The notes beneath the pieces were generated by a model. The model made no database searches and was not told where the DNA came from. It worked only from the letters and a program-made list of their open reading frames with translations. The position numbers and the translations under genes were made by a program. A stretch of 64,000 nt of DNA from Escherichia coli. Its GTDB lineage: Bacteria; Pseudomonadota; Gammaproteobacteria; Enterobacterales; Enterobacteriaceae. Location of the stretch: NCBI RefSeq assembly GCF_022846255.1, contig NZ_AP025682.1, one strand, 5' to 3'. Positions 2,334 through 48,306 of the stretch are shown here, piece by piece. Every line of letters begins with the position of its first letter. The first letter of the stretch is position 1.

Positions 2334-4671
<2,338 letters not shown>

Positions 4672-26948: not shown

Positions 26949-28145
26949 ATGCGTGGAGAATTTTATCAGCAGTTAACCAACGATCTGGAAACCGCACGGG
27001 CGGAAGGGTTGTTTAAAGAAGAGCGCATTATTACGTCTGCGCAGCAAGCAGATATCACTGTGGCTGATGGAAGCCACGTCATTAACTTTTGTGCCAACAA
27101 CTATCTCGGACTGGCGAATCATCCGGATCTGATTGCGGCGGCAAAGGCGGGAATGGATTCTCACGGTTTCGGCATGGCTTCGGTGCGTTTTATTTGCGGT
27201 ACCCAGGACAGCCATAAAGAGCTTGAACAAAAACTGGCGGCATTCCTGGGGATGGAAGATGCGATTCTCTACTCTTCCTGCTTTGATGCTAACGGTGGCC
27301 TGTTTGAAACGCTGCTGAGCGCGGAGGACGCCATTATCTCCGACGCACTGAACCACGCGTCTATTATTGATGGTGTGCGTCTGTGTAAAGCCAAACGCTA
27401 TCGTTATGCCAACAACGATATGCAGGAGCTGGAAGCACGTCTGAAAGAAGCGCGTGAAGCCGGTGCGCGTCATGTGCTGATTGCCACCGATGGTGTGTTC
27501 TCGATGGACGGCGTGATTGCCAACCTGAAGGGCGTTTGCGATCTGGCAGATAAATACGATGCCTTGGTGATGGTAGACGACTCCCACGCGGTCGGTTTTG
27601 TCGGTGAAAATGGTCGTGGTTCCCATGAATACTGCGATGTGATGGGGCGTGTAGACATCATTACCGGTACGTTGGGTAAAGCGTTGGGCGGGGCTTCTGG
27701 TGGTTATACCGCGGGGCGCAAAGAAGTGGTTGAGTGGCTGCGCCAGCGTTCTCGTCCGTACCTGTTCTCCAACTCGCTGGCACCAGCGATTGTCGCCGCA
27801 TCCATCAAAGTACTGGAGATGGTCGAAGCGGGTAGCGAGCTGCGTGACCGTCTGTGGGCGAACGCGCGTCAGTTCCGTGAGCAAATGTCGGCGGCGGGCT
27901 TTACCCTGGCGGGAGCCGATCACGCCATTATTCCCGTCATGCTTGGCGATGCGGTAGTGGCGCAGAAATTTGCCCGTGAGCTGCAAAAAGAGGGCATTTA
28001 CGTCACCGGTTTCTTCTATCCGGTCGTTCCTAAAGGTCAGGCGCGTATTCGTACCCAGATGTCTGCGGCGCATACCCCTGAGCAAATTACGCGTGCAGTA
28101 GAAGCATTCACGCGTATTGGTAAACAACTGGGCGTTATCGCCTGA
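26949..28145 (+). CDS. kbl: 2-amino-3-ketobutyrate CoA ligase
   Basis: 398-aa [62 protein letters not shown]... Confidence 0.95.
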
Positions 28146-28154
28146 GGGTGTGAG

Positions 28155-29180
28155 ATGAAAGCGTTATCCAAACTGAAAGCGGAAGAGGGCATCTGGATGA
28201 CCGACGTTCCTGTACCGGAACTCGGGCATAACGATCTGCTGATTAAAATCCGTAAAACAGCCATCTGCGGGACTGACGTTCACATCTATAACTGGGATGA
28301 GTGGTCGCAAAAAACCATCCCGGTGCCGATGGTCGTGGGCCATGAATATGTCGGTGAAGTGGTAGGTATTGGTCAGGAAGTGAAAGGCTTCAAGATTGGC
28401 GATCGCGTTTCTGGCGAAGGCCATATCACCTGCGGTCACTGTCGCAACTGTCGTGGCGGTCGTACCCATCTGTGCCGCAACACGATCGGCGTCGGTGTTA
28501 ACCGTCCGGGCTGCTTCGCCGAGTATCTGGTGATTCCGGCGTTCAACGCCTTCAAAATCCCGGACAATATCTCCGACGACCTGGCTTCCATTTTTGATCC
28601 CTTCGGTAACGCTGTGCATACCGCGCTGTCGTTCGATCTGGTTGGCGAGGATGTGCTGGTCTCTGGTGCAGGTCCGATAGGTATTATGGCTGCGGCGGTG
28701 GCGAAACACGTTGGTGCACGCAATGTGGTGATCACTGATGTTAACGAATACCGCCTTGAGCTGGCACGCAAAATGGGTATCACCCGTGCGGTTAACGTCG
28801 CTAAAGAAAACCTTAATGATGTGATGACAGAACTGGGCATGACCGAAGGCTTTGATGTCGGTCTGGAAATGTCCGGTGCGCCGCCAGCGTTTCGTACCAT
28901 GCTCGACACCATGAACCACGGCGGTCGTATTGCGATGCTGGGTATTCCACCGTCCGATATGTCTATCGACTGGACCAAAGTAATCTTTAAAGGCTTGTTC
29001 ATTAAAGGTATTTACGGTCGTGAGATGTTTGAAACCTGGTACAAGATGGCGGCGCTGATTCAGTCTGGCCTCGATCTCTCGCCGATCATTACCCATCGTT
29101 TCTCTATCGATGATTTCCAGAAGGGCTTTGACGCTATGCGTTCGGGCCAGTCCGGGAAAGTTATTCTGAGCTGGGATTAA
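28155..29180 (+). CDS. tdh: L-threonine 3-dehydrogenase
   Basis: 341-aa [59 protein letters not shown]... Confidence 0.95.
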
Positions 29181-29187
29181 CACGAAC

Positions 29188-29212
29188 AAGGGCTGGTATT
29201 CCAGCCCTTTTG
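29188..29212 (+). terminator. Rho-independent terminator of kbl-tdh (AAGGGCTGG-TATT-CCAGCCCTT then TT)
   Basis: Perfect 9-bp GC-rich stem starting 8 nt after the tdh stop, followed by a T-run. Confidence 0.6.
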
Positions 29213-29418
29213 CCTGAGGATAATCCGTTAAATATGTAAAATCCTGTCAGTGTAATCAAGATATCGTAATTGCGCTGATCTCTTATATAGCTGCTCTCAT
29301 TATCTCTCTACCCTGACGTGACTCTCTCACCGGTAAAAATAATATCTCACAGGCTTAATAGTTTCTTAATACAAAGCCTGTAAAACGTCAGGATAACTTC
29401 AGAGGTCGTCGGTAATTT

Positions 29419-30453
29419 ATGATGAACAGCACCAATAAACTTAGTGTTATTATTCCGTTATATAATGCGGGCGATGATTTCCGCACTTGTATGGAATCTT
29501 TAATTGCGCAAACATGGACTGCTCTGGAAATCATTATTATTAACGATGGTTCAACGGATAATTCTGTTGAAATAGCAAAGCATTACGCAGAAAACTATCC
29601 GCACGTTCGTTTGTTGCATCAGGCGAATTCTGGCGCATCGGTGGCGCGTAATCGTGGGATTGAAGTGGCAACGGGAAAATATGTCGCTTTTGTCGATGCT
29701 GACGATGAGGTCTATCCCACCATGTACGAAACGCTGATGACCATGGCGTTAGAGGACGACCTCGACGTGGCGCAGTGCAACGCTGATTGGTGTTTTCGTG
29801 AAACGGGTGAAACCTGGCAATCCATCCCTACCGATCGCCTTCGCTCAACCGGTGTATTAACTGGTCCGGACTGGCTGCGGATGGGACTTTCTTCCCGCCG
29901 TTGGACACACGTGGTCTGGATGGGGGTTTATCGCCGCGATGTTATTGTTAAAAATAACATTAAATTTATTGCCGGATTACATCATCAGGATATTGTCTGG
30001 ACAACAGAATTTATGTTTAACGCGCTGCGTGCGCGATATACCGAGCAATCATTATATAAATATTATCTGCATAATACGTCAGTGAGTCGGTTGCATAGAC
30101 AAGGGAATAAAAACCTTAATTATCAACGTCACTATATTAAGATTACCCGCCTGCTGGAGAAATTAAATCGAAATTATGCCGACAAAATTACGATTTATCC
30201 GGAATTTCATCAGCAAATAACTTACGAAGCATTGCGTGTTTGCCATGCGGTGCGCAAAGAGCCGGATATTATTACCCGCCAACGGATGATTGCTGAGATA
30301 TTTACTTCCGGTATGTATAAGCGCCTGATTACCAATGTGCGCAGCGTGAAGGTGGGTTACCAGGCGTTACTGTGGTCTTTCCGCTTATGGCAATGGCGCG
30401 ACAAAACGCGGTCGCACCATCGCATTACGCGTAGCGCCTTTAATTTGCGCTAG
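29419..30453 (+). CDS. waaH: LPS inner-core family-2 glycosyltransferase WaaH (YibD)
   Basis: 344-aa ORF MMNSTNKLSVIIPLYNAGDDFRTCMESLIAQTWTALEIIIINDGSTDNS...VAFVDADD (GT2 DxD). Confidence 0.85.
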   Translation: MMNSTNKLSVIIPLYNAGDDFRTCMESLIAQTWTALEIIIINDGSTDNSVEIAKHYAENYPHVRLLHQANSGASVARNRGIEVATGKYVAFVDADDEVYPTMYETLMTMALEDDLDVAQCNADWCFRETGETWQSIPTDRLRSTGVLTGPDWLRMGLSSRRWTHVVWMGVYRRDVIVKNNIKFIAGLHHQDIVWTTEFMFNALRARYTEQSLYKYYLHNTSVSRLHRQGNKNLNYQRHYIKITRLLEKLNRNYADKITIYPEFHQQITYEALRVCHAVRKEPDIITRQRMIAEIFTSGMYKRLITNVRSVKVGYQALLWSFRLWQWRDKTRSHHRITRSAFNLR

Positions 30454-31399
30454 CGTTAAGTTTTGCCGATTCGGGCTGTTTGCCCCAGCCTTGCCACTGA
30501 TGCTGGAAGTAAACGATCAGCGTGCTCTGGCTGATGCTTTCGCTTAATACTTCAAAGAAGCGATTAGCATAAACAGGTTCTATCGGCTTCTTCGGTTTGC
30601 ACAGCTTCACGCCACGGAATGGATTACGCGGTGTGTCGGGCACAGTGTTTTTCGGCGGTGTAGACGTATCAACCTGCGGTTCATTCAACAAGCTGCTGGC
30701 TTTCACCAGCGTAATGTCTGGCGGCAGGTTATAAACCATCTGTTGTAGCACGCGTACCGTTGAAGGGTGAGGATGTCCAATGGCAATGGTTGAACCGTTG
30801 CGACGTGCCAGGTCAATTGCGCGATTAAATTGCATACGGATGTCCGCTTCATTTTGCGAATCGTCGAGGAACACCTTCCGTTTGATCACCTTCACGCCAG
30901 TGCCTTGCGCGGCGCGCATCGCCTGGGTATTACCGATGGTTACGCTGTCGAGGAAGTAAAGATTGTAACGCTCCAGCGCCTGCATCACTTTCTGCATACC
31001 AAACAGGTTAGAGGTCATCTTGCTGCCCATGTGGTTGTTGATCCCCACGGCATAGGGCACGTTATTGACCGCACTACGAATAATGCGCTCAATTTCGTCG
31101 CTGCTCATCTCCGGGCGTAGCGTATTTTTCTCCAGCGGCTGTTTACTCAGTGGTGCCATCGGTAGATGAATCAACACTTCGTGACCGCTGTTATGTGCTT
31201 TGGTCGCCATCTCTCTGGCGTGCGGTGAATCGGGTAATACAGCGACGGAGATAGCGGAAGGCATCGCCAGCACCTGGTTTTCGTTGTGCGGGCGATACCC
31301 AAAATCATCAATGACGATGGCAAGTTTGCCAGCAATTACGGGGGAGGAGAGCGCCAACAGAGCGGCAAATGCAAGAACGTTACGACGAAATGGAAACAA
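30440..31399 (-). CDS. yibQ: Divergent polysaccharide deacetylase family protein YibQ
   Basis: 319-aa ORF with signal peptide MFPFRRNVLAFAALLALSSPVIAG...; lies immediately downstream of envC as in K-12. Confidence 0.85.
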   Translation of the reverse strand: MFPFRRNVLAFAALLALSSPVIAGKLAIVIDDFGYRPHNENQVLAMPSAISVAVLPDSPHAREMATKAHNSGHEVLIHLPMAPLSKQPLEKNTLRPEMSSDEIERIIRSAVNNVPYAVGINNHMGSKMTSNLFGMQKVMQALERYNLYFLDSVTIGNTQAMRAAQGTGVKVIKRKVFLDDSQNEADIRMQFNRAIDLARRNGSTIAIGHPHPSTVRVLQQMVYNLPPDITLVKASSLLNEPQVDTSTPPKNTVPDTPRNPFRGVKLCKPKKPIEPVYANRFFEVLSESISQSTLIVYFQHQWQGWGKQPESAKLNASAN

Positions 31400-31402
31400 A
31401 AC

Positions 31403-32662
31403 TTATCTTCCCAACCACGGCTGTGGATTGACCGCCTGACCCTGGCGGCGAATTTCGAAATAGAGTGAAGGCCGACCCTGACCGCCACTGCTGCCCACCA
31501 GTGCAATTGGCTGGCCCGCGCGAACCTGCGAACCAACGCTCACCAGTGCGCTCTGATTATAGCCGTAAAGACTCATGTCGCCTTTACCATGCTCAACCAC
31601 CACCACCAGACCGTAGCCTTGCAGCCAGTCAGCCAGAATCACCCGGCCGTCGGCAATCGCTTTAACTTCAGTACCTTCAGAGGCACCAATCACCATCCCT
31701 TTCCAGCGTAATTCACCCTGTAGCTGTTCGCCATAGCGATGCAGCGTCGGCCCGCGAACTGGCCAGAATGCCTGACCGCGCGGTGCGCCCAGACCACCGG
31801 TACGGGACATCAGCGATTTTTCGCTTTCGGTCGGCTTGTAGGTGGTGCCTTTGCGCGTCGCTTCTTTCTGGCGGTCGCGAACCGCCTGGGCTTCGCGCGC
31901 TTCACGTTCAGCACGCGCTTTCGCCGCGGCTTCCGCACGGGCAATGCTGTTACGCAGACGGGATTCGTTGGCGCGCAGCTCGCTCAACTGTTGCTGACCT
32001 TGCTGGATGGAAGACTCCAGCCCTGCCAGTGTTTTCTTACGCTCGCTCAACGCCTGGGTCAGCTTCGCCTGTTGGGCGCGCTGCTCATATAAAAGCGTTT
32101 GTTGCTCGCTCTGTTTCTCTTCCAGTTCGGCACGCTGCATAGCGACTTCTTCACGCGTTTGTTTCAACTGAGCAATGGTTTCTTGTCGCGCCTGGTTGAG
32201 ATAGCCGAAATAAGCCTGTAACCGCTGCCCACGCTGGCTTTCTTCACCGCTGAGAATCAGCTGAATACCGGTATGTTCACCCTGACGAAACGCGGCATCC
32301 AGTTGCGCGGCGAGGCTGCGCTCCTGGGCGGCTTTTTGCTGCTCTAGTTTGGCAATCGACGCGTTCATCTCATCAATCTGTTTATTCAGTTGATTAAGCG
32401 TGTTTTGCGTTTCGCGCAGTTTACGGGTGGCTTCAGAGATCGCTTCTTCCTGCTTTTTCAATTGTGCGAGCAGGCTTGCGCGTTGTTGTTGCTTTTGGCG
32501 TACCGCGCGCTCTTTCGCGGCGATGTCAGCCTGAATGGATTTGAGTTGGTCACGCTCATCCGCGTGGGCGGAAAAGGCGCACAACAATACGCCAGCGCTC
32601 AGAACGCTGGCGTAGATGATGGGCCTGATTGCAAACCTGCGCGGTTTCACGGCCCGTGTCAT
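31403..32662 (-). CDS. envC: Murein hydrolase activator EnvC (coiled coil plus LytM domain)
   Basis: ORF contains MTRAVKPRRFAIRPIIYASVLSAGVLLCAFSAHADERDQLKSIQ..., Q/A/E-rich coiled coil and C-terminal LytM-like region; 419 aa from ATG at 32660-32662. Confidence 0.9.
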   Translation of the reverse strand: MTRAVKPRRFAIRPIIYASVLSAGVLLCAFSAHADERDQLKSIQADIAAKERAVRQKQQQRASLLAQLKKQEEAISEATRKLRETQNTLNQLNKQIDEMNASIAKLEQQKAAQERSLAAQLDAAFRQGEHTGIQLILSGEESQRGQRLQAYFGYLNQARQETIAQLKQTREEVAMQRAELEEKQSEQQTLLYEQRAQQAKLTQALSERKKTLAGLESSIQQGQQQLSELRANESRLRNSIARAEAAAKARAEREAREAQAVRDRQKEATRKGTTYKPTESEKSLMSRTGGLGAPRGQAFWPVRGPTLHRYGEQLQGELRWKGMVIGASEGTEVKAIADGRVILADWLQGYGLVVVVEHGKGDMSLYGYNQSALVSVGSQVRAGQPIALVGSSGGQGRPSLYFEIRRQGQAVNPQPWLGR

Positions 32663-32695
32663 GGTATTAATCGCCTTTCCCCTCATGGGGAGGGA

Positions 32696-34240
32696 TTATT
32701 CCACGATGAACAGCGGCTTACCAGTCATCTCTTGCGGGATTTCCATACCCATCAGCGACAACATGGTCGGCGCGATGTCAGAAAGTTTGCCGCCTTCAAC
32801 CGCTTTCACGTTCTTATCACCAACGTAAATCAGCGGAACTGGCAGGTTGGTGTGTGCTGTGTGTGCCTGACCCGTTGCCGGATCGCGCATCTGTTCAGCG
32901 TTACCGTGGTCAGCGGTGATCAGCAGTTGTCCACCCACGGACTCAACCGCTTTCGCGACTTCTTCCACGCAGTGATCCAGCGCTTCAACCGCTTTAACCG
33001 CCGCTTCCATCACCCCGGTGTGACCTACCATGTCGCCGTTCGGATAGTTACAGATAATGGTGTCGTATTTGCCGCTCTTGATTGCCGCAACCAGTTTTTC
33101 GGTCAGCTCTGCGGAGCTCATTTCCGGTTGCAGATCGTAGGTAGCCACTTTCGGTGAGTTGATCAGAATGCGATCTTCGCCTTTGAACGACTCTTCTACG
33201 CCACCGTTGAAGAAGAAAGTAACGTGGGCATATTTTTCGGTTTCGGAAATACGCAGCTGAGTTTTGTCGTTTTTCGCCATCCACTCGCCGAAGGTGTTAA
33301 CCAGGGAAGCGGGTGGGTAAGCCACTGCGGTTTTGATGTCGGCAGCGTATTCGGTCAGCATCACGAAATCGACGTTAACCACTTTCTTACGCGCGAAGCC
33401 ATCGAAATCAGCGTTCACGAAAGCACGAGTGATTTCACGCGCGCGGTCAGCACGGAAGTTCATGAAAATCAGCGCATCGCCGTCTTCCATTGCCGCATCT
33501 GGCTGACCTTCTGCACGAATAACGGTCGCTTTCACGAACTCGTCGTTTTCGTCGCGAGCATAAGCAGCCTGCAAACCGGCAACGGCGGTATCGGCCTGGA
33601 ACTCACCTTGCGCCAGAGTCAGCAGGTCATAAGCTTTTTCAACGCGATCCCAACGGTTATCGCGGTCCATCGCGTAGTAACGACCAATGATGGACGCTAC
33701 GCGGCCTTTACCCAGCGCGGCAAATTTCTCTTCGAATTTTTTCAGCGAGGATTCAGCACTGCGCGGCGGAGTGTCGCGACCGTCAAGGAATGCGTGTAGG
33801 TAGATTTTTTCTGCGCCGCGTTCAGCTGCCAGTTCTACCATCGCCATGATGTGATCTTCGTGGCTGTGTACACCACCTGCGGAGAGCAGACCCATAATGT
33901 GTACTGCTTTGCCTGCGTTTTTCGCTTTATCTACTGCACCAGTCAACACCGGATTAGCAAAGAAAGCGCGATCTTTGATTTCAACGTCCAGACGAGTCAG
34001 GTCCTGATACACGATGCGGCCGGCACCCAGGTTAACGTGGCCTACTTCGGAGTTGCCCATCTGACGGTCAGGCAGACCGACTTCCAGACCGGAAGCGTCG
34101 ATCAGGGTATGCGGACGATTGGCCCACAGTGCATCCATTACCGGGGTTTTAGCACTAAAAATGGCGTTATCCTGCTGTTCTTCGCGATAGCCATAGCCAT
34201 CCAGAATCACCAGTACCATAGGTTTTTTAGAAACCGACAT
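32696..34240 (-). CDS. gpmM: 2,3-bisphosphoglycerate-independent phosphoglycerate mutase
   Basis: ORF contains [44 protein letters not shown]...; 514 aa from ATG at 34238-34240. Confidence 0.95.
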
Positions 34241-42357: not shown

Positions 42358-42389
42358 AATGTGGCGTTTACCCATTTGTTAATGGATCA

Positions 42390-45300
42390 TTACCACTGAA
42401 TACCAGCACCGAGTGCGGCGGAGTATTCACCCTGGCTATTGGTACTACCTTGTAATTTGTAGACCCAACGACCATTGGCGCTCACCATCGACACACCTAA
42501 AGCAACAGCCGATTCACCGTTGTAAGTACCGCCACCAATAGACGCCATGCTGGCACCCGGCGTGTAAGCCTGCGGCAGACCGGTCATTGCCATTGCAGAA
42601 GCGATACCACCACTCAGCTTGCTTTCAGTTTTGGACAGTTTGTTATCCATCTCAACCATGCGCTGATCGGTGTATTGCTTCGTTTCCTGCACACTTTGCT
42701 TCAACTGCGCATAGTTCACTGCGTCGTTGTTGTTCACGCCAGCAGAAACGTTGCTGATGCGAGTCGTACCGCTATTGCCGCCACCGAGAGTGATGTTGCT
42801 GTAGTCGATAGAGCCATCAGCTTTGGTGTCGTAGCGCACGCCGCCTGCTTCAGAAGACTTCAGTTGCGAAACGTTAACCGCATCGGTGGCATTAACACCG
42901 GCAGCAACGTTGGTGATACGGCGCTGGTTGGTAGAAGAACCCACAGAGATCGTATTTTCTTCGTCTGCTACGGAACCCGTGCCCAGTGCGACGCTGTTGT
43001 CAGCGGCAGCAATGGAACCAGAACCAATCGCAACACTGTCTTTACCCTGCGCGTTGGCGTCTGCGCCATCGGTGTTGGTCTTGAAGTACTTAGTGCTACC
43101 GGTGGTTACGATATCGCCAATGCCGTTTTCGATATTGGTCACGCGAGTATCCAGATTAGTGACCTGAGTGTTCAGGTTAGTAATGCTCTGGGTATTCTGG
43201 GAAACCTGCGCGTCCGTTACTTTCAACTGACCCACGTTAACCGCATCGGTATCCGCCGAACCTGCTGCGACGTTGGTGATCTGACGTTGACCGTCTTCAC
43301 TGCCGACAGAGAACTCACCCACAGAGTTCTGCGGTGCGTCCATGTTGTAGGCAGTGTAGTTGGTCTGCGCGCCACGGGTAGTCTGAGAACCATTACCCAT
43401 TGCAATGCTGTCGGCATGATTTGCGCGTGCGTTAGAACCGATAGCAATACCGTTGATCGCATCAGCCAGAACTAAAGTGTTCAGGCCGATACCAATACCC
43501 GCATTACCATTAACGATGGTTTTCGCGCCCATTGCCAGCGAGTCTTCACCGACTGCCAGTGAGTCTTCAGCCGTTGAGTTGGCGTGATAGTATTTGGTTG
43601 GTGTGGTTGCGACTGCACCAATGGCGTTCTGCAACTGGCGAACAGTAACAGCGTCATGGGCTTCAGAACCATCCGCGACGTTGATGATTTGACGATATTT
43701 ACCATCATCACCGATCGACAATGCACCAAGCAGTTCGCCGTCAGTTGTGTCATAACCAATAACCACTCCATCTTCTGTTACGCTGGTAGAGCGTGAACCT
43801 TTCAAAATGACCCGGTTAGAGACCGAATTGCTGCCTAATGCGATGCCGGAATCGATAGTGCTACTGCTGTTCTGACCAATCGCGACACTGCTTTCCCCGG
43901 AAGCGACAGAGTTATAACCCACAGCCGTTGAGCCAACGCCCGCGGCGCTTGCGTCGACAAAGGTTAAGCCCGTGTCGTTGGTGCGAACATAGTTAATACC
44001 CGCCCCATTTTCTTCGATATAGGTACTGTTAGTATTACCGGCGAGTTGGTTGATGATCTCACTATTCTGATTGATCAACATATTCGCGGCATACAACTGA
44101 GAACCGTTAACGGCATCGGTACTGGCGGCAGAAAGTTCACCTGCGGCAACATTCGTGATTTTGCTGGTGGTGTTAGTGCCGTGCGCCGCAGAGAATGAGC
44201 CGGATACGGAATCCCACGTCATCGCATCTTCACCGAGACTGTCGATAGCATCAGTCAGATTGGTGATGTTGGTAGTGTTAGTGGCAACGTCAGTGGTCAG
44301 ATTACTGATATTGGTGGTGTTGGCTGCCACATTCTCGTTGGTAGTATTCAACTGAGAGCCATTAATCGCATCAGTACTGGTGGCACTGATCTCACCCGCA
44401 GCAACATAAGCGATTTTGCTGGCACTACCACCGTGACTGGCACTGAAACTGCCTGAAGCGTTGTCCCAGAGCAGGGCATCGCCGAGTGAGGTTCCGACCG
44501 AAGTGTTAATGGCTGCCAGGGCATCGCCTACGCTGTTGTAGTCAGTTCCATTAATACTATAGGTTGGGCCAGTAAATACACCTGTATCACTTACAGTGGC
44601 ACCGCCACCAAAATAATCCGCTACCGTACTGCTAAGACCGTAGAGTTGTCCACCGTTCACGGCATCGGTACTGGTGGCAGAAATAGCACCTGCGGTGACA
44701 TTGGTGATTTTGCTGGTGGCGTCAGTGCCGTGCGCAGCGCTGAATGCTGTGCCCTTCCACAACAGAGAATCGTCACCGAGACTGTCAACAGCGTCAGTCA
44801 GGTTAGTGATACTGGTGGTATTGCCAGCGACGTCGTTGGTCAGATTAGTGATATTGGTAGTGTTGGCAGCAACATCGTCTTTGGTGGCTTTCAACTGCGA
44901 ACCGTTAACGGCGTCAGTGCTGCCAGCTGTCAGGTCACCGGCTTTGACATTGGTGATTTTGCTGGTGGCGTCAGTGCCGTGCGCAGCGCTGAATGCTGTG
45001 CCCTTCCACAACAGAGAATCGTCACCGAGACTGTCAACAGCGTCAGTCAGGTTAGTGATACTGGTGGTATTGCCAGCGACGTCGTTGGTCAGATTAGTGA
45101 TATTGGTAGTGTTGGCAGCAACATCGTCTTTGGTGGCTTTCAACTGCGAACCGTTAACGGCGTCAGTGCTGCCAGCTGTCAGGTCACCGGCTTTGACATT
45201 GGTGATTTTGCTGGTGGCGTCAGTGCCGTGCGCAGCGCTGAATGCTGTGCCCTTCCACAACAGAGAATCGTCACCGAGACTGTCAACAGCGTCAGTCAGG

Positions 45301-47021
45301 TTAGTGATACTGGTGGTATTGCCAGCGACGTCGTTGGTCAGATTAGTGATATTGGTAGTGTTGGCAGCAACGTCGTCTTTGGTGGCTTTCAACTGCGAAC
45401 CGTTAACAGCGTCAGTGCTGCCAGCAGTCAGGCTGCCAGCACTGACGTTGGTGATTTTGCTGGTGGCTTCGGTGCCGTGTGCGGCACTGAATGCTGTGCC
45501 GTTCCACAACAGAGCATCCTGCTGCAGGTCGTACAATTGAGAGCCGTTTACTACATCGGTGCTGGTTGCAGAAACCGTACCTTTAGCAACATTAGTGATT
45601 TTGTTGGTGGCATTTGCACCGTGATTGGCGCTGAACGCCCCCGCGGTTTTATTCCATTGTAGGGTATTATTGTCGATTCCTGACAGAGCATCACCCACGT
45701 TATTATAGGTTCCGCTTCTCAACGCGTAGCTTACTGCGGTTACGGTGCCATCGCTGCCTACAGTAGCGCCTCCTCCGAGTCGCTTGGCGACTGAATCACT
45801 GATCGTATAAAGCTGTGAGCCGTTGATGGCATCGGTACTGGTGTTGCTTATGGCACCAGCAGCCATATTAACAATTTTGCGTTTTGTTGCGCTGTTGCCA
45901 ACTGAAACCGTATTGCTTGCATCTGTGGTCGATCCTGCGCCGATAGCGACAGAATTGTCGGTCGCTGCTGCAGCCCCTACACCGAGGGCGACAGAATCAT
46001 TGCCGTTTGCCCTGGACTGGCTACCGAAAGCAAGGCTGTTGCTGCCACCAGCGGCACTACCCTCTCCCAATGCGATGGCATTCTCTCCCGAGGACAAACT
46101 GTTACTTCCCAACGCGATTGAGTTCACTTTGCTTGCAATGCTACCTTGCCCCAGCGCAATCGCATTTTGTTCGCTGGCTTCACTGGTGTTACCTAATGCA
46201 ATACTGGATTCGCCAGATGCCTGACTTGCATTACCCAGGGCCATCGAATTCACTCCCAGGGCTTGCGTTTTGTTCCCAATCGCGATGGCGTTATCGTTCG
46301 AACTGATACTGTCAGCACCTATTGCCAGTGAGCCAGTGCTATTAGCTGTAGATTGTCTGCCGAATGCGAGGCTATCAGCACCGGCAGCATTGCTACTTGC
46401 TCCCAGCGCCATTGCATAATCTTTTGACGCATTGGCATTATCACCGAGGGCGATGCTCATAATTTCGTAAGCTTTAGCCGAATTTCCTAACGCAATAGTT
46501 TTTTCACCATCGGCAAGGGAGGAGTCCCCAATAGCAAGAGATGTATAACCATTCGTCTTTGCGTAACGACCAAAAGCCATCGAACGATCGCCATTTGCTA
46601 CTGACGATGCACCCAGCGCGACACTTCTGTCACCCATTGATTTTGCACTAACCCCGAACGCCATGGATGCTCCACCAGTTGCAAGGGTTTTTGACCCGAT
46701 GGCAGAACTGTACTCACCTTCGGCTATCGCGTCATATCCTAAAGCTGTACTCGCGCCACTAGTGTTCATAAAGGTATTTGCTTTTGCCCCTTTACCGATA
46801 GCAACCCAGCCGTCACCTGCTGAGCCATCGCCATAATCAGTTGGCTGCCCGTCGTAGTTATTAGCTAACGCTCCAAACGACGACAACAACCCACCCGCAA
46901 CCAACGCAGAAATTAACAGCTTACTGCGCCCGCTTTTTTTACCACGGCTCTTCGCCGTTTCGCTGGCAACGCTGTAACTGCCCGTCGCCGGGTTCCAGAT
47001 AACTTTAAATATTTTATTCAT
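42390..47021 (-). CDS. upaG: Trimeric autotransporter adhesin, UpaG/EhaG/SadA family (1543 aa)
   Basis: N-terminal extended signal peptide [21 protein letters not shown]...; long low-complexity stalk with tandem repeats; C-terminal YadA-like anchor ending ...[13 protein letters not shown]; located between yibL and lldP, where UpaG/EhaG sit. Confidence 0.85.
44640..45620. repeat. Tandem 249-bp (83-codon) direct repeats inside the adhesin gene, about 3 near-identical copies plus diverged flanking copies
   Basis: Segment ttggtgattttgctggtggcgtcagtgccgtgcgcagcgctgaatgctgtgccc... recurs near 44701, 44950 and 45199; the protein shows the unit [25 protein letters not shown]...[11 protein letters not shown] three times. 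Confidence 0.85.
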
Positions 47022-47064
47022 TATTGATGCTCTCTATTCCTTGATATAAGCGCAGAGGCTGCAT

Positions 47065-47748
47065 TTATTTTTTGTTTTTCCGCTGTGGAGATTCAGCAGT
47101 TTGAAGACGGTCGAACTGAATATTTGCCATGTTGATGGCTAATTTCAGATATTTGAGGTTGTTGGGCGAGACACCTTTTAGCGTCAAATTAATGTCTTGC
47201 CATTGACCTGGTAATAATTTCAGGGAGGAGTTCATTGAGGTACTAAATAGCAATTGCTGCCATTTTGCTAATGCGTTGATGTCGGTGGGTTTTTCTCCCC
47301 CCCATGTCGCGTAGAAACCCATATTTGATACAGGAACACTTAATAAGTTAACCAGTGAAATACGAATAACGCTGCCGTTTTCTACTGCGTCAATAGACAG
47401 TATTTTCCCTGCCAAACCAACAGAACCGTTATTTAAAATGAAGTATTGGGTTTGTGCCGGGTTAAATTCTGTAAAGACAAATTCGTCCTGTTTGTCTTTA
47501 ACTGCCTTCACCACGCCAGCGAGCGTTTTGGTACTGTTTATGATGGTAGTTTGTTGTTTTTCAAAGTGTTCTATCTTGCGCTTGTCGAGTTCTTGTTGTT
47601 TTTCAAGCGCCTCAATTTTGCTTTTTTGTAACTCTTGCTGTGTAACGAGATCGTCGACCTTACTCGCTTTTTCAATATAGTCACACCCTACCAATAAGCA
47701 AAGTTGCAATATCATTAACACGCTTAACAGTGTTTTCTTTAGGTTCAT
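47065..47748 (-). CDS. SadB-like lipoprotein encoded just upstream of the adhesin gene
   Basis: 227-aa ORF with lipoprotein signal peptide and lipobox (LLVGC), then a coiled-coil-like stretch (ELQKSKIEALEKQQELDKRKIEHFEKQQ) and a C-terminal domain; 43 bp upstream of and co-oriented with the adhesin gene, like Salmonella sadB-sadA. Confidence 0.65.
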   Translation of the reverse strand: MNLKKTLLSVLMILQLCLLVGCDYIEKASKVDDLVTQQELQKSKIEALEKQQELDKRKIEHFEKQQTTIINSTKTLAGVVKAVKDKQDEFVFTEFNPAQTQYFILNNGSVGLAGKILSIDAVENGSVIRISLVNLLSVPVSNMGFYATWGGEKPTDINALAKWQQLLFSTSMNSSLKLLPGQWQDINLTLKGVSPNNLKYLKLAINMANIQFDRLQTAESPQRKNKK

Positions 47749-48306
47749 AGGATGAATTCCTTTTCATAATCCCGATACAGTTGATAATTACGGCACAATC
47801 ATTTTTTTTATGAATAATTGGAGTGGGGCATATCCGCAAAATAAATTTGTTAGAGAATTTTTGTATTAATTGGTTGTGCGAATATGTTATTAAATGTCAA
47901 ACGATTTCAGTTTGTAGCCAATAATATTAATCGCGCGGATTTTAATGATCGGTGTCAATCGATGTCAAATGTTTCACCGGATAAAGGCACAGGGCATGGA
48001 AAGGTAAATATTCAGTTGAGTGATGTTTTATTGTGGAATTTGCGAAGATGATTGAAAAATTTAAATAATTAATTATGTTTCAAGCATTGATATGCGGCAA
48101 TTCATTGTTAATATTGATACATCGTTCTTTAATTTGTATCTGATTTTCAGAATTTAGCCTGGCATGTGCGCTAAAAAGAATAGAGGAGATTGAATATATA
48201 ATGTTAAGAACGTTATAAATATTCGATCTCTGAAACAGGCTCCTGCATGTGCCAGCAGGAGCGAGTAAATGGTGAGAGGCTGTGATTACAGCGACGAGAA
48301 AGGAAC

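Follow-up and report, generated by a model that had tools for sequence, protein, structure and literature searches.

A genuine 14-bp convergent overlap between waaH and yibQ (sddA) at a variable chromosomal slot of Escherichia coli

Short convergent overlaps between neighbouring genes are a well-described class. In a survey of 338 genomes, 3,035 of the 42,055 well-characterised overlaps (~ 7%) were convergent, and an overlap was considered suspicious only when it exceeded 60 bp (PMC2478687). The members of this class are pairs of real genes on opposite strands that have a few 3' codons in common, such that each stop lies within the codons of the other gene; they are kept among related species and misannotation of start codons has no effect on them. 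At the RNA level, 276 of the 370 convergent operons of E. coli (~ 75%) overlap, by 286 nt on average, and most of these overlaps stem from read-through of an inefficient terminator between the genes (Conway et al. 2014, PMC4161252). Rho-dependent 3' ends associated with a stem-loop can be located within the coding region of the downstream gene (Dar & Sorek 2018, PMC6061677). Two additional arrangements serve as points of reference: excludons, in which opposite-strand neighbours are expressed in a mutually exclusive manner, and bidirectional intrinsic terminators, which are common to two convergent genes.

The pair described here lies in a 64,000-nucleotide stretch of E. coli DNA (assembly GCF_022846255.1, contig NZ_AP025682.1), termed the window, whose positions are used throughout. 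The coding sequences, as given by both the open reading frame listing and RefSeq, are:

29419..30453, plus strand: waaH (yibD), 344 amino acids, stop codon TAG
30440..31399, minus strand: yibQ (now sddA), 319 amino acids, stop codon TAA

The waaH product is the UDP-glucuronate:LPS(HepIII) glycosyltransferase, inducible through PhoB/R (PMC6358824), and its GT2 domain comprises residues 9–137 (Pfam PF00535, E = 1e-39). Induction by phosphate limitation is PhoB-dependent, direct by EMSA in O157:H7 and indirect by ChIP-seq in K-12. The yibQ gene is the last of the gpmM-envC-yibQ operon, and its product, renamed SddA, is a deacetylase that acts on denuded septal glycan strands (10.1101/2025.02.18.638797). 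The deacetylase domain spans residues 28–238 (Pfam PF04748, Polysacc_deac_2, E = 3e-76) and is followed by a disordered tail, residues ~ 239–319, the last 80 residues being outside any Pfam domain. The C-terminal region has been described as disordered and dispensable for activity (10.1101/2025.02.18.638797). Taken together, the overlap is genuine and probably incidental, waaH and yibQ being unrelated genes under independent regulation that meet tail to tail, with no regulatory role demonstrated for the overlap as such.

The overlap and its two stop codons

An earlier note, prepared from the letters of this DNA and its open reading frames, had claimed that the 3' ends of waaH and yibQ overlap by 14 bp and that the waaH stop (30453) lies within the 3' end of yibQ. 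Both statements are borne out by the open reading frame listing and by the RefSeq annotation of ATCC 11775, MG1655 and other strains. The common stretch comprises the following elements:

30440..30453, both strands: the 14-bp overlap, TTAATTTGCGCTAG, read on the plus strand as (F)NLR and stop of WaaH, and on the minus strand as ASAN and stop of YibQ
30440..30442, minus strand: the yibQ stop TAA, which is TTA on the plus strand and is formed by positions 2–3 of a WaaH Phe/Leu/Ile codon and position 1 of the following Asn codon (xTT-Axx)
30451..30453, plus strand: the waaH stop TAG, which spans the yibQ codons GCT-AGC (Ala-Ser)

Thus the waaH 3' end reads ...GCC TTT AAT TTG CGC TAG and the yibQ 3' end on the opposite strand reads ...GCT AGC GCA AAT TAA. 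The 2.2 kb surrounding the junction match E. coli ATCC 11775 (NZ_CP033092.2) at 100% identity, RefSeq placing waaH and yibQ there at the same coordinates as the open reading frame listing; of 5426 complete E. coli genomes, 5424 contain this segment. In MG1655 (NC_000913.3) yibQ occupies 3788101..3789060 and waaH 3789047..3790081, which again gives a 14-bp overlap, and RefSeq annotation of a second MG1655 assembly and of a baboon isolate gives the same value. In strain G5, IS1 has taken all of waaH but the last 114 nt, and the overlap with yibQ is kept. A 60-nt probe centred on the junction matched 5363 of the 5426 complete E. coli genomes, with both waaH and yibQ annotated beneath the match in every sampled row, and the 14 overlap bases are identical among the strains compared. 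The overlap is therefore already known, in that it is present in the RefSeq annotation of E. coli.

The geometry is ordinary. Among the eight convergent gene pairs of the window two overlap, the other being ligB/yicG (4 bp), and the remaining six pairs are 10–69 bp apart. The two genes have the properties of the class outlined above: both are real coding genes, located on opposite strands with common 3' bases, and the stops of both are supported by orthologues, much as ligB/yicG shares only a few codons. At 14 bp the overlap is longer than the commonest 4-bp form but far below the 60-bp range, and nothing essential differs; an overlap of this length is not unusual, and short convergent overlaps need no special explanation.

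Orthologous junctions were collected by a YibQ scan of one genome per species, which yielded 80 loci; YibQ and WaaH orthologues were then located by tblastn and their frames extended to the stops. Loci L019, L030 and L054 were left out of the junction counts because in-frame extension produced nonsense C-termini. A waaH orthologue adjoins yibQ in convergent orientation at 33 of the 80 loci, and the junctions (negative values denote overlap) fall into these groups:

-14 bp, 13 of 33 loci: about seven genera, with Escherichia coli, E. albertii, Escherichia sp., several Citrobacter, Salmonella enterica subsp. diarizonae, a Leclercia MAG, Silvania, Cedecea colo and Enterobacter sp. ENT03
-4 bp, 5 of 33 loci: Kluyvera, Pseudescherichia vulneris and an Enterobacteriaceae MAG, in the CTAG/TTAG form in Kluyvera and Pseudescherichia
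0 bp, 10 of 33 loci: the C. freundii group and some Kluyvera
+6, +10 and +14 bp, one locus each: Kosakonia and Superficieibacter
+72 and +113 bp, one locus each: Pseudocitrobacter

The WaaH C-terminus is conserved as ...WRDK...A(L/F)NL(R/G/S) and stop, and more than 20 species end in ALNLR. YibQ carries a conserved QWQGW motif, beyond which the tail varies in length and sequence: 14 residues follow the motif in E. coli (GKQPESAKLNASAN) and only 1–2 in C. freundii and Kluyvera. The occurrence of the same register in 13 species, together with the conserved WaaH C-terminus and the in-frame QWQGW motif, establishes that both frames and both stops are sound. Alignment with orthologues, which the earlier note had named as the test that could refute the overlap by exposing a misplaced stop, hence supports both of them, and misannotation of a stop codon is ruled out by the orthologue C-termini and by the junction DNA.

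More broadly, the overlap might be an annotation artefact in which one stop or one frame is wrong and the genes do not truly overlap. Such a reading could draw on the absence of Pfam domains from the last 80 residues of YibQ, on the poor conservation of its last 14 residues, and on the fact that many of the long convergent overlaps in published surveys are 3'-extension errors (PMC2478687). However, the frames fix the stops, the YibQ motif lies in frame 14 residues from the end, the junction sequence occurs in 5363 independent assemblies, and the overlap measures 14 bp rather than more than 60 bp. In addition, N- and C-terminal FLAG fusions of SddA were both detected at full-length size (10.1101/2025.02.18.638797). 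An artefact is almost certainly not the explanation.

In all genomes with the -14 register, the yibQ stop is antisense to the boundary between the WaaH (L/F/I) and Asn codons (xTT-A yielding TAA); in Salmonella diarizonae waaH uses CTC for this Leu, which turns the yibQ stop into TGA. Where Leu occupies the critical WaaH position, nine of nine codons are CTT or CTC; no other Leu codon would yield an antisense stop. Judged from these sequences, it is not random that 13 species representatives keep exactly the -14 register. The Leu codon usage and the recurrence of the register across about seven genera hint that some selection may act on the junction, which would then not be a pure accident, the species being non-independent samples.

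The slot between yibQ and tdh

In E. coli, tdh is located on the far side of waaH, and the tdh terminator hairpin (29188–29209) lies upstream of waaH. The interval between yibQ and tdh is occupied differently in related genera. In Klebsiella and Raoultella it holds a different gene, encoding a 270-residue family-2 glycosyltransferase, at approximately -4 to +5 bp from yibQ, and a hairpin with a U-rich tail is embedded in this abutting convergent gene. In the E. cloacae group the slot holds a 405-residue open reading frame that runs in the same direction as yibQ. Where the slot is empty, yibQ and tdh converge and are separated by 43 nt in Cedecea neteri and by 119 nt in Citrobacter sp. R56 and Awk 4, and the gap contains a classic bidirectional terminator with an A-tract, a hairpin and a U-tract. 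Among relatives without waaH, such a terminator follows yibQ in Cedecea neteri, Citrobacter sp. R56 and Awk 4, Franconibacter and some Enterobacter, and it is common to tdh wherever tdh adjoins yibQ, whereas none is present at the E. coli waaH/yibQ junction. The two Citrobacter genomes without waaH retain the long, E. coli-like YibQ tail (...GINANAN and stop), and the tail is thus independent of waaH.

The variety of the junctions (-14, -4, 0 and +6 to +14 bp), the presence of other genes in the slot, and the direct yibQ/tdh terminator all argue for incidental compaction. The slot looks like a hotspot of gene gain and loss at which the junction has been compacted to differing degrees, rather than a conserved regulatory design, as far as gene order and sequence in these genomes can tell. 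On this reading, waaH, encoding a phosphate-starvation-induced LPS core glucuronosyltransferase, fills the variable slot from tdh to the end of gpmM-envC-yibQ and leaves no spacer, and the variable disordered tail of YibQ runs 11 nt plus the stop into the 3' end of waaH. The yibQ stop, TAA or TGA, exists because the conserved penultimate (L/F/I)-N of WaaH is coded xT(T/C)-AAx. We infer that the arrangement arose by gain or loss of a gene in the slot.

Transcript ends on the two strands

According to the earlier note, a convergent overlap leaves no room for terminators. As a general inference this is wrong. A consensus scan (GC-rich hairpin and U tract, with an A tract upstream) revealed no intrinsic terminator at the junction, but termination does not need intergenic space, as its signals can be located in the opposing gene, and here a Rho-dependent region maps within the antisense of waaH. 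Adams et al. defined such regions from the effect of bicyclomycin (BCM) on coverage (PMC7815308), and a BCM-sensitive region antisense to waaH peaks at MG1655 position 3789384 (+), with a Rho score of 5.55 and p = 1.8e-15 (PMC7815308 supplementary file 2). Conversion of coordinates via NC_000913.3 places the peak at window position 30116, so that 324 nt separate it from the yibQ stop upstream. The curated Term-seq 3' ends include none in MG1655 3788900–3789499 (PMC7815308), which low expression may explain. The elements considered on the yibQ strand are:

30116..30439, minus strand: putative untranslated 3' extension of the gpmM-envC-yibQ transcript, antisense to waaH, up to the Rho peak
30390..30423, minus strand: candidate 3'-end protective stem-loop with a 13-bp stem and an 8-nt loop, 17 nt past the yibQ stop, without a U tract
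30240..30399, minus strand: plausible Rho loading region, richer in C than in G (C/G 1.2–1.6 in 80-nt windows), downstream of the hairpin

The claim that the two transcripts are necessarily antisense to each other at their 3' ends stands in a trivial sense, as full-length mRNAs are complementary over at least 14 nt, but the complementarity is not confined to these bases. With the Rho region located ~ 324 nt inside antisense waaH, the RNA overlap would extend over hundreds of nucleotides, far beyond 14 nt. In this respect the yibQ transcript resembles those of the convergent operons of Conway et al. (PMC4161252), as it enters the convergent gene by a few hundred nt, compared with their average of 286 nt. 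It differs from most of them in having no intergenic space, and therefore no intergenic terminator to read through, and in being Rho-dependent. The transcript of the yibQ operon would continue as untranslated antisense RNA into waaH until stopped by Rho ~ 0.3 kb downstream, and its 3' end might be trimmed back to the strong stem-loop.

The stem-loop is encoded within the waaH codons for QWRDKTRSHHR. It folds with -22.2 kcal/mol on the minus strand and -15.4 kcal/mol on the plus strand, because two G.U pairs of the stem turn into A.C mismatches in the waaH-sense strand, and it ranks among the most stable 0.06% of all 40-nt segments from both strands of the window. In the next 40–160 nt beyond the stem-loop the yibQ-sense RNA has a C/G ratio of 1.4–1.6, and from its composition the C-rich stretch at 30240–30399 is a plausible rut site. 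These features are akin to the Rho-dependent 3' ends of Dar & Sorek (PMC6061677): a stem-loop that lacks a U tract follows soon after the stop, C exceeds G beyond it, and BCM-sensitive termination follows further downstream. In contrast to those ends, no steady-state 3' end is listed by Term-seq at the base of the yibQ hairpin, which is also limited to Escherichia and near relatives. An Rfam scan of 28000–33000 at E ≤ 1 gave no match, and the folding z-scores of the whole region are unremarkable (-1.25 and -1.05).

The strength of the hairpin suggests a second explanation, that the overlap is kept by selection for another function, with the stem-loop acting as a stabiliser or terminator of the yibQ operon, or the C-terminus of YibQ acting as a recognition tail for Prc. 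The stability of the fold (-22 vs -15 kcal/mol on the opposite strand) and its position 17 nt after the stop are consistent with the former, and the hairpin and U-rich tail that Klebsiella and Raoultella embed in the abutting gene constitute a parallel. As for the latter, the level of SddA is higher in a delta-prc strain, Prc being a tail-specific protease, and an AlphaFold3 model places the C-terminal KFNASAN of SddA in the Prc active site (10.1101/2025.02.18.638797). The survival of the antisense stop through the synonymous CTT-to-CTC change in Salmonella also agrees with selection of this kind. Nonetheless, the comparative evidence points the other way. The stem-loop was found in E. coli, E. 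albertii and Escherichia sp., and among 34 aligned orthologous segments it is not conserved outside Escherichia and the C. amalonaticus group. For the 13-bp stem, 59% of the cells of these 34 segments are paired, no better than in slid controls (58% for a slide of -3), the covariation score is below the shuffle mean, and RNAalifold predicts no pairs. A family-wide conserved RNA element is rejected on these three results. Furthermore, of the 22 hairpins of comparable strength in the window, more than half are located inside genes, far from any stop. With respect to the protein, the YibQ tail is highly variable and ends right after QWQGW in C. freundii and Kluyvera, and loss of the yibQ stop would, as read from the sequence, add only five residues. 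We regard selection for a second function as unlikely. A protective role of the stem-loop at the 3' end is a reasonable but unproven reading that applies to E. coli only.

On the opposite strand, G outnumbers C in the RNA that follows the waaH stop (C/G 0.65–0.9), and close to the waaH 3' end a single, weak site resembles a terminator:

30516..30535, plus strand: palindromic hairpin with a 6-bp stem and a T-poor tail, 63 nt past the waaH stop, inside yibQ

The region contains five such sites compared with 3.5 ± 2.5 in shuffled sequences, which is not a significant excess.

Expression of waaH and of the envC-yibQ operon

The earlier note further suggested that the overlap could couple the expression of the two genes. 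In its strongest form this is an excludon-like arrangement, in which waaH and envC-yibQ antagonise each other through collision of RNA polymerases or cleavage of RNA duplexes by RNase III, and phosphate starvation lowers the septal deacetylase. The pair resembles excludons in that its members are opposite-strand neighbours with complementary transcripts, one of which is condition-specific (waaH, at low phosphate). Full-length transcripts must be complementary, with the yibQ transcript reaching at least ~ 324 nt antisense into waaH, and the G-rich RNA past the waaH stop is a poor Rho substrate, which renders read-through into yibQ plausible.

The response to phosphate can be examined in RNA-seq data of K-12 wild type and delta-phoB at low phosphate (PMC10294691 Table S1). 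The waaH counts are ~ 12,700 and ~ 2,980, respectively, a 4.3-fold difference (log2 2.1); waaH is still substantially expressed in delta-phoB, and the comparison is of RNA only and was designed for another question (PMC10294691). The transcript of envC, which belongs to the same operon as yibQ, shows a slight downward trend when waaH is high (log2 -0.4), but the shift falls short of significance (p = 0.19), and the rows listed, sorted by p-value to an adjusted p ≤ 0.569, do not include yibQ. Reciprocal expression of waaH and envC/yibQ is thus not seen among the rows listed for this comparison.

RNase III duplexes captured with p19 provide a second line of evidence. Such duplexes occur in the 5' third of yibQ, at window positions 31212–31232, ~ 760 nt from the junction; a second site lies ~ 66 nt further into yibQ, its duplex sequence having no match in this strain at ≤ 2 mismatches. 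The yibQ mRNA consequently meets antisense RNA somewhere. However, none of the duplexes listed lies within ~ 400 nt of the junction, the cultures not having been phosphate-starved, and in the same study convergent 3' overlaps generally contained ~ 38-fold less dsRNA than divergent 5' overlaps. The geometry, with gaps from -14 to +113 bp, is not conserved, waaH is absent in many genera, and the functions of the two genes exhibit no obvious opposing logic. In these respects the pair differs from excludons, as it shows neither reciprocal expression nor listed RNase III duplexes at the junction. Coupling of waaH and yibQ expression is therefore unsupported by these data sets, which were made for other questions, and an excludon-like mechanism is very unlikely.

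A more elaborate scheme can be envisaged, in which, for want of a terminator between the genes, strong induction of waaH under phosphate starvation would send polymerases and antisense RNA through yibQ (sddA) and envC, damping this operon of a septal peptidoglycan deacetylase and an amidase activator and linking remodelling of the LPS core to daughter-cell separation. Conversely, constitutive read-through from envC-yibQ, limited by Rho, would set a basal silencing of waaH, and the Escherichia-specific stem-loop would be a dual-use element, both coding sequence and 3' end. We consider this scheme highly improbable.

An incidental overlap of two independently regulated genes, the preferred reading, matters little in itself given how well described its class is. 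It does have consequences for genetic manipulation, since altering the 3' end of waaH or yibQ by a deletion or a tag changes the partner gene. A clean waaH deletion takes the stop and the last four codons of yibQ/sddA, and tagging SddA at its C-terminus interrupts the last codons of WaaH. Terminators for this pair are to be sought inside the neighbouring coding sequence. Now that yibQ has been characterised as sddA, cell-separation phenotypes of waaH constructs should be read with possible polar or antisense effects in mind.

The waaH–yibQ junction and its flanks

The 14 bp at which the convergent genes waaH and yibQ overlap (30440-30453) are identical in the E. coli strains compared, unlike the adjoining codons of the yibQ tail (30454-30476), which fall immediately beyond the shared bases and are unusually polymorphic within the species. 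Relative to K-12, this segment carries 4 differences in 23 nt, resulting in S/A and L/F substitutions, and identity over the 60-nt junction is only 93% in 3527 of 5363 genomes. The overlap persists even in E. coli strain G5 (locus L004, 2248-3114), where an IS1A insertion deleted waaH except for its last 114 nt.

Past the yibQ stop lies a structure encoded within the waaH codons QWRDKTRSHHR:

30390-30423, - strand: very stable stem-loop with a 13-bp stem, 17 nt 3' of the yibQ stop

Its predicted energies are strand-asymmetric, -22 versus -15 kcal/mol. The stem-loop is kept within Escherichia and is not conserved across genera.

The whole window has eight convergent pairs, of which two overlap. 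The second is a 4-bp coding sequence overlap between ligB (+) and yicG (-) at 3192-3195. Elsewhere in the window, a 4.75 kb YadA-like adhesin gene (42363-47114) is directly followed downstream by a RefSeq pseudogene (47158-47841), annotated as a hypothetical protein and interrupted by an internal stop.

Gene content from yibQ to tdh

The yibQ-tdh interval is a variable slot, as seen by comparing loci L010, L011, L077 and L079 with L069, L036, L039 and L050 and with the window (29181-30439). It is occupied by waaH in the window, by a different GT2 gene of 270 aa in Klebsiella and Raoultella, and by a co-directional ORF of 405 aa in the E. cloacae group. In Cedecea neteri and Citrobacter sp. the slot is empty and a bidirectional terminator is shared. 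The C. freundii group and Kluyvera possess a divergent waaH lineage (L012, L014, L027, L029, L033-L035, L038, L043-L045, L051 and L055) with 63-71% protein identity to E. coli and a different C-terminus, ...LTLDLKD*. This waaH meets a short-tailed yibQ back-to-back, at 0 or -4 bp (negative values denoting overlap).

Transcription on the two strands

Perfect RNase III duplexes of 21-22 bp, captured with p19, are located in the 5' third of yibQ:

31212-31232: p19-captured duplex inside yibQ
~31146-31167: p19-captured duplex inside yibQ

Antisense RNA therefore pairs with yibQ mRNA at those sites; it could arise from waaH read-through or from an internal promoter. On the waaH strand, published bicyclomycin data (PMC7815308, supplementary file 2) place a Rho-dependent termination region with a Rho score of 5.8 at MG1655 position 3790042 (-), corresponding to window ~29458 (+), just 39 nt inside the waaH ORF. 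This region suggests that waaH-strand transcripts are terminated prematurely in rich medium.
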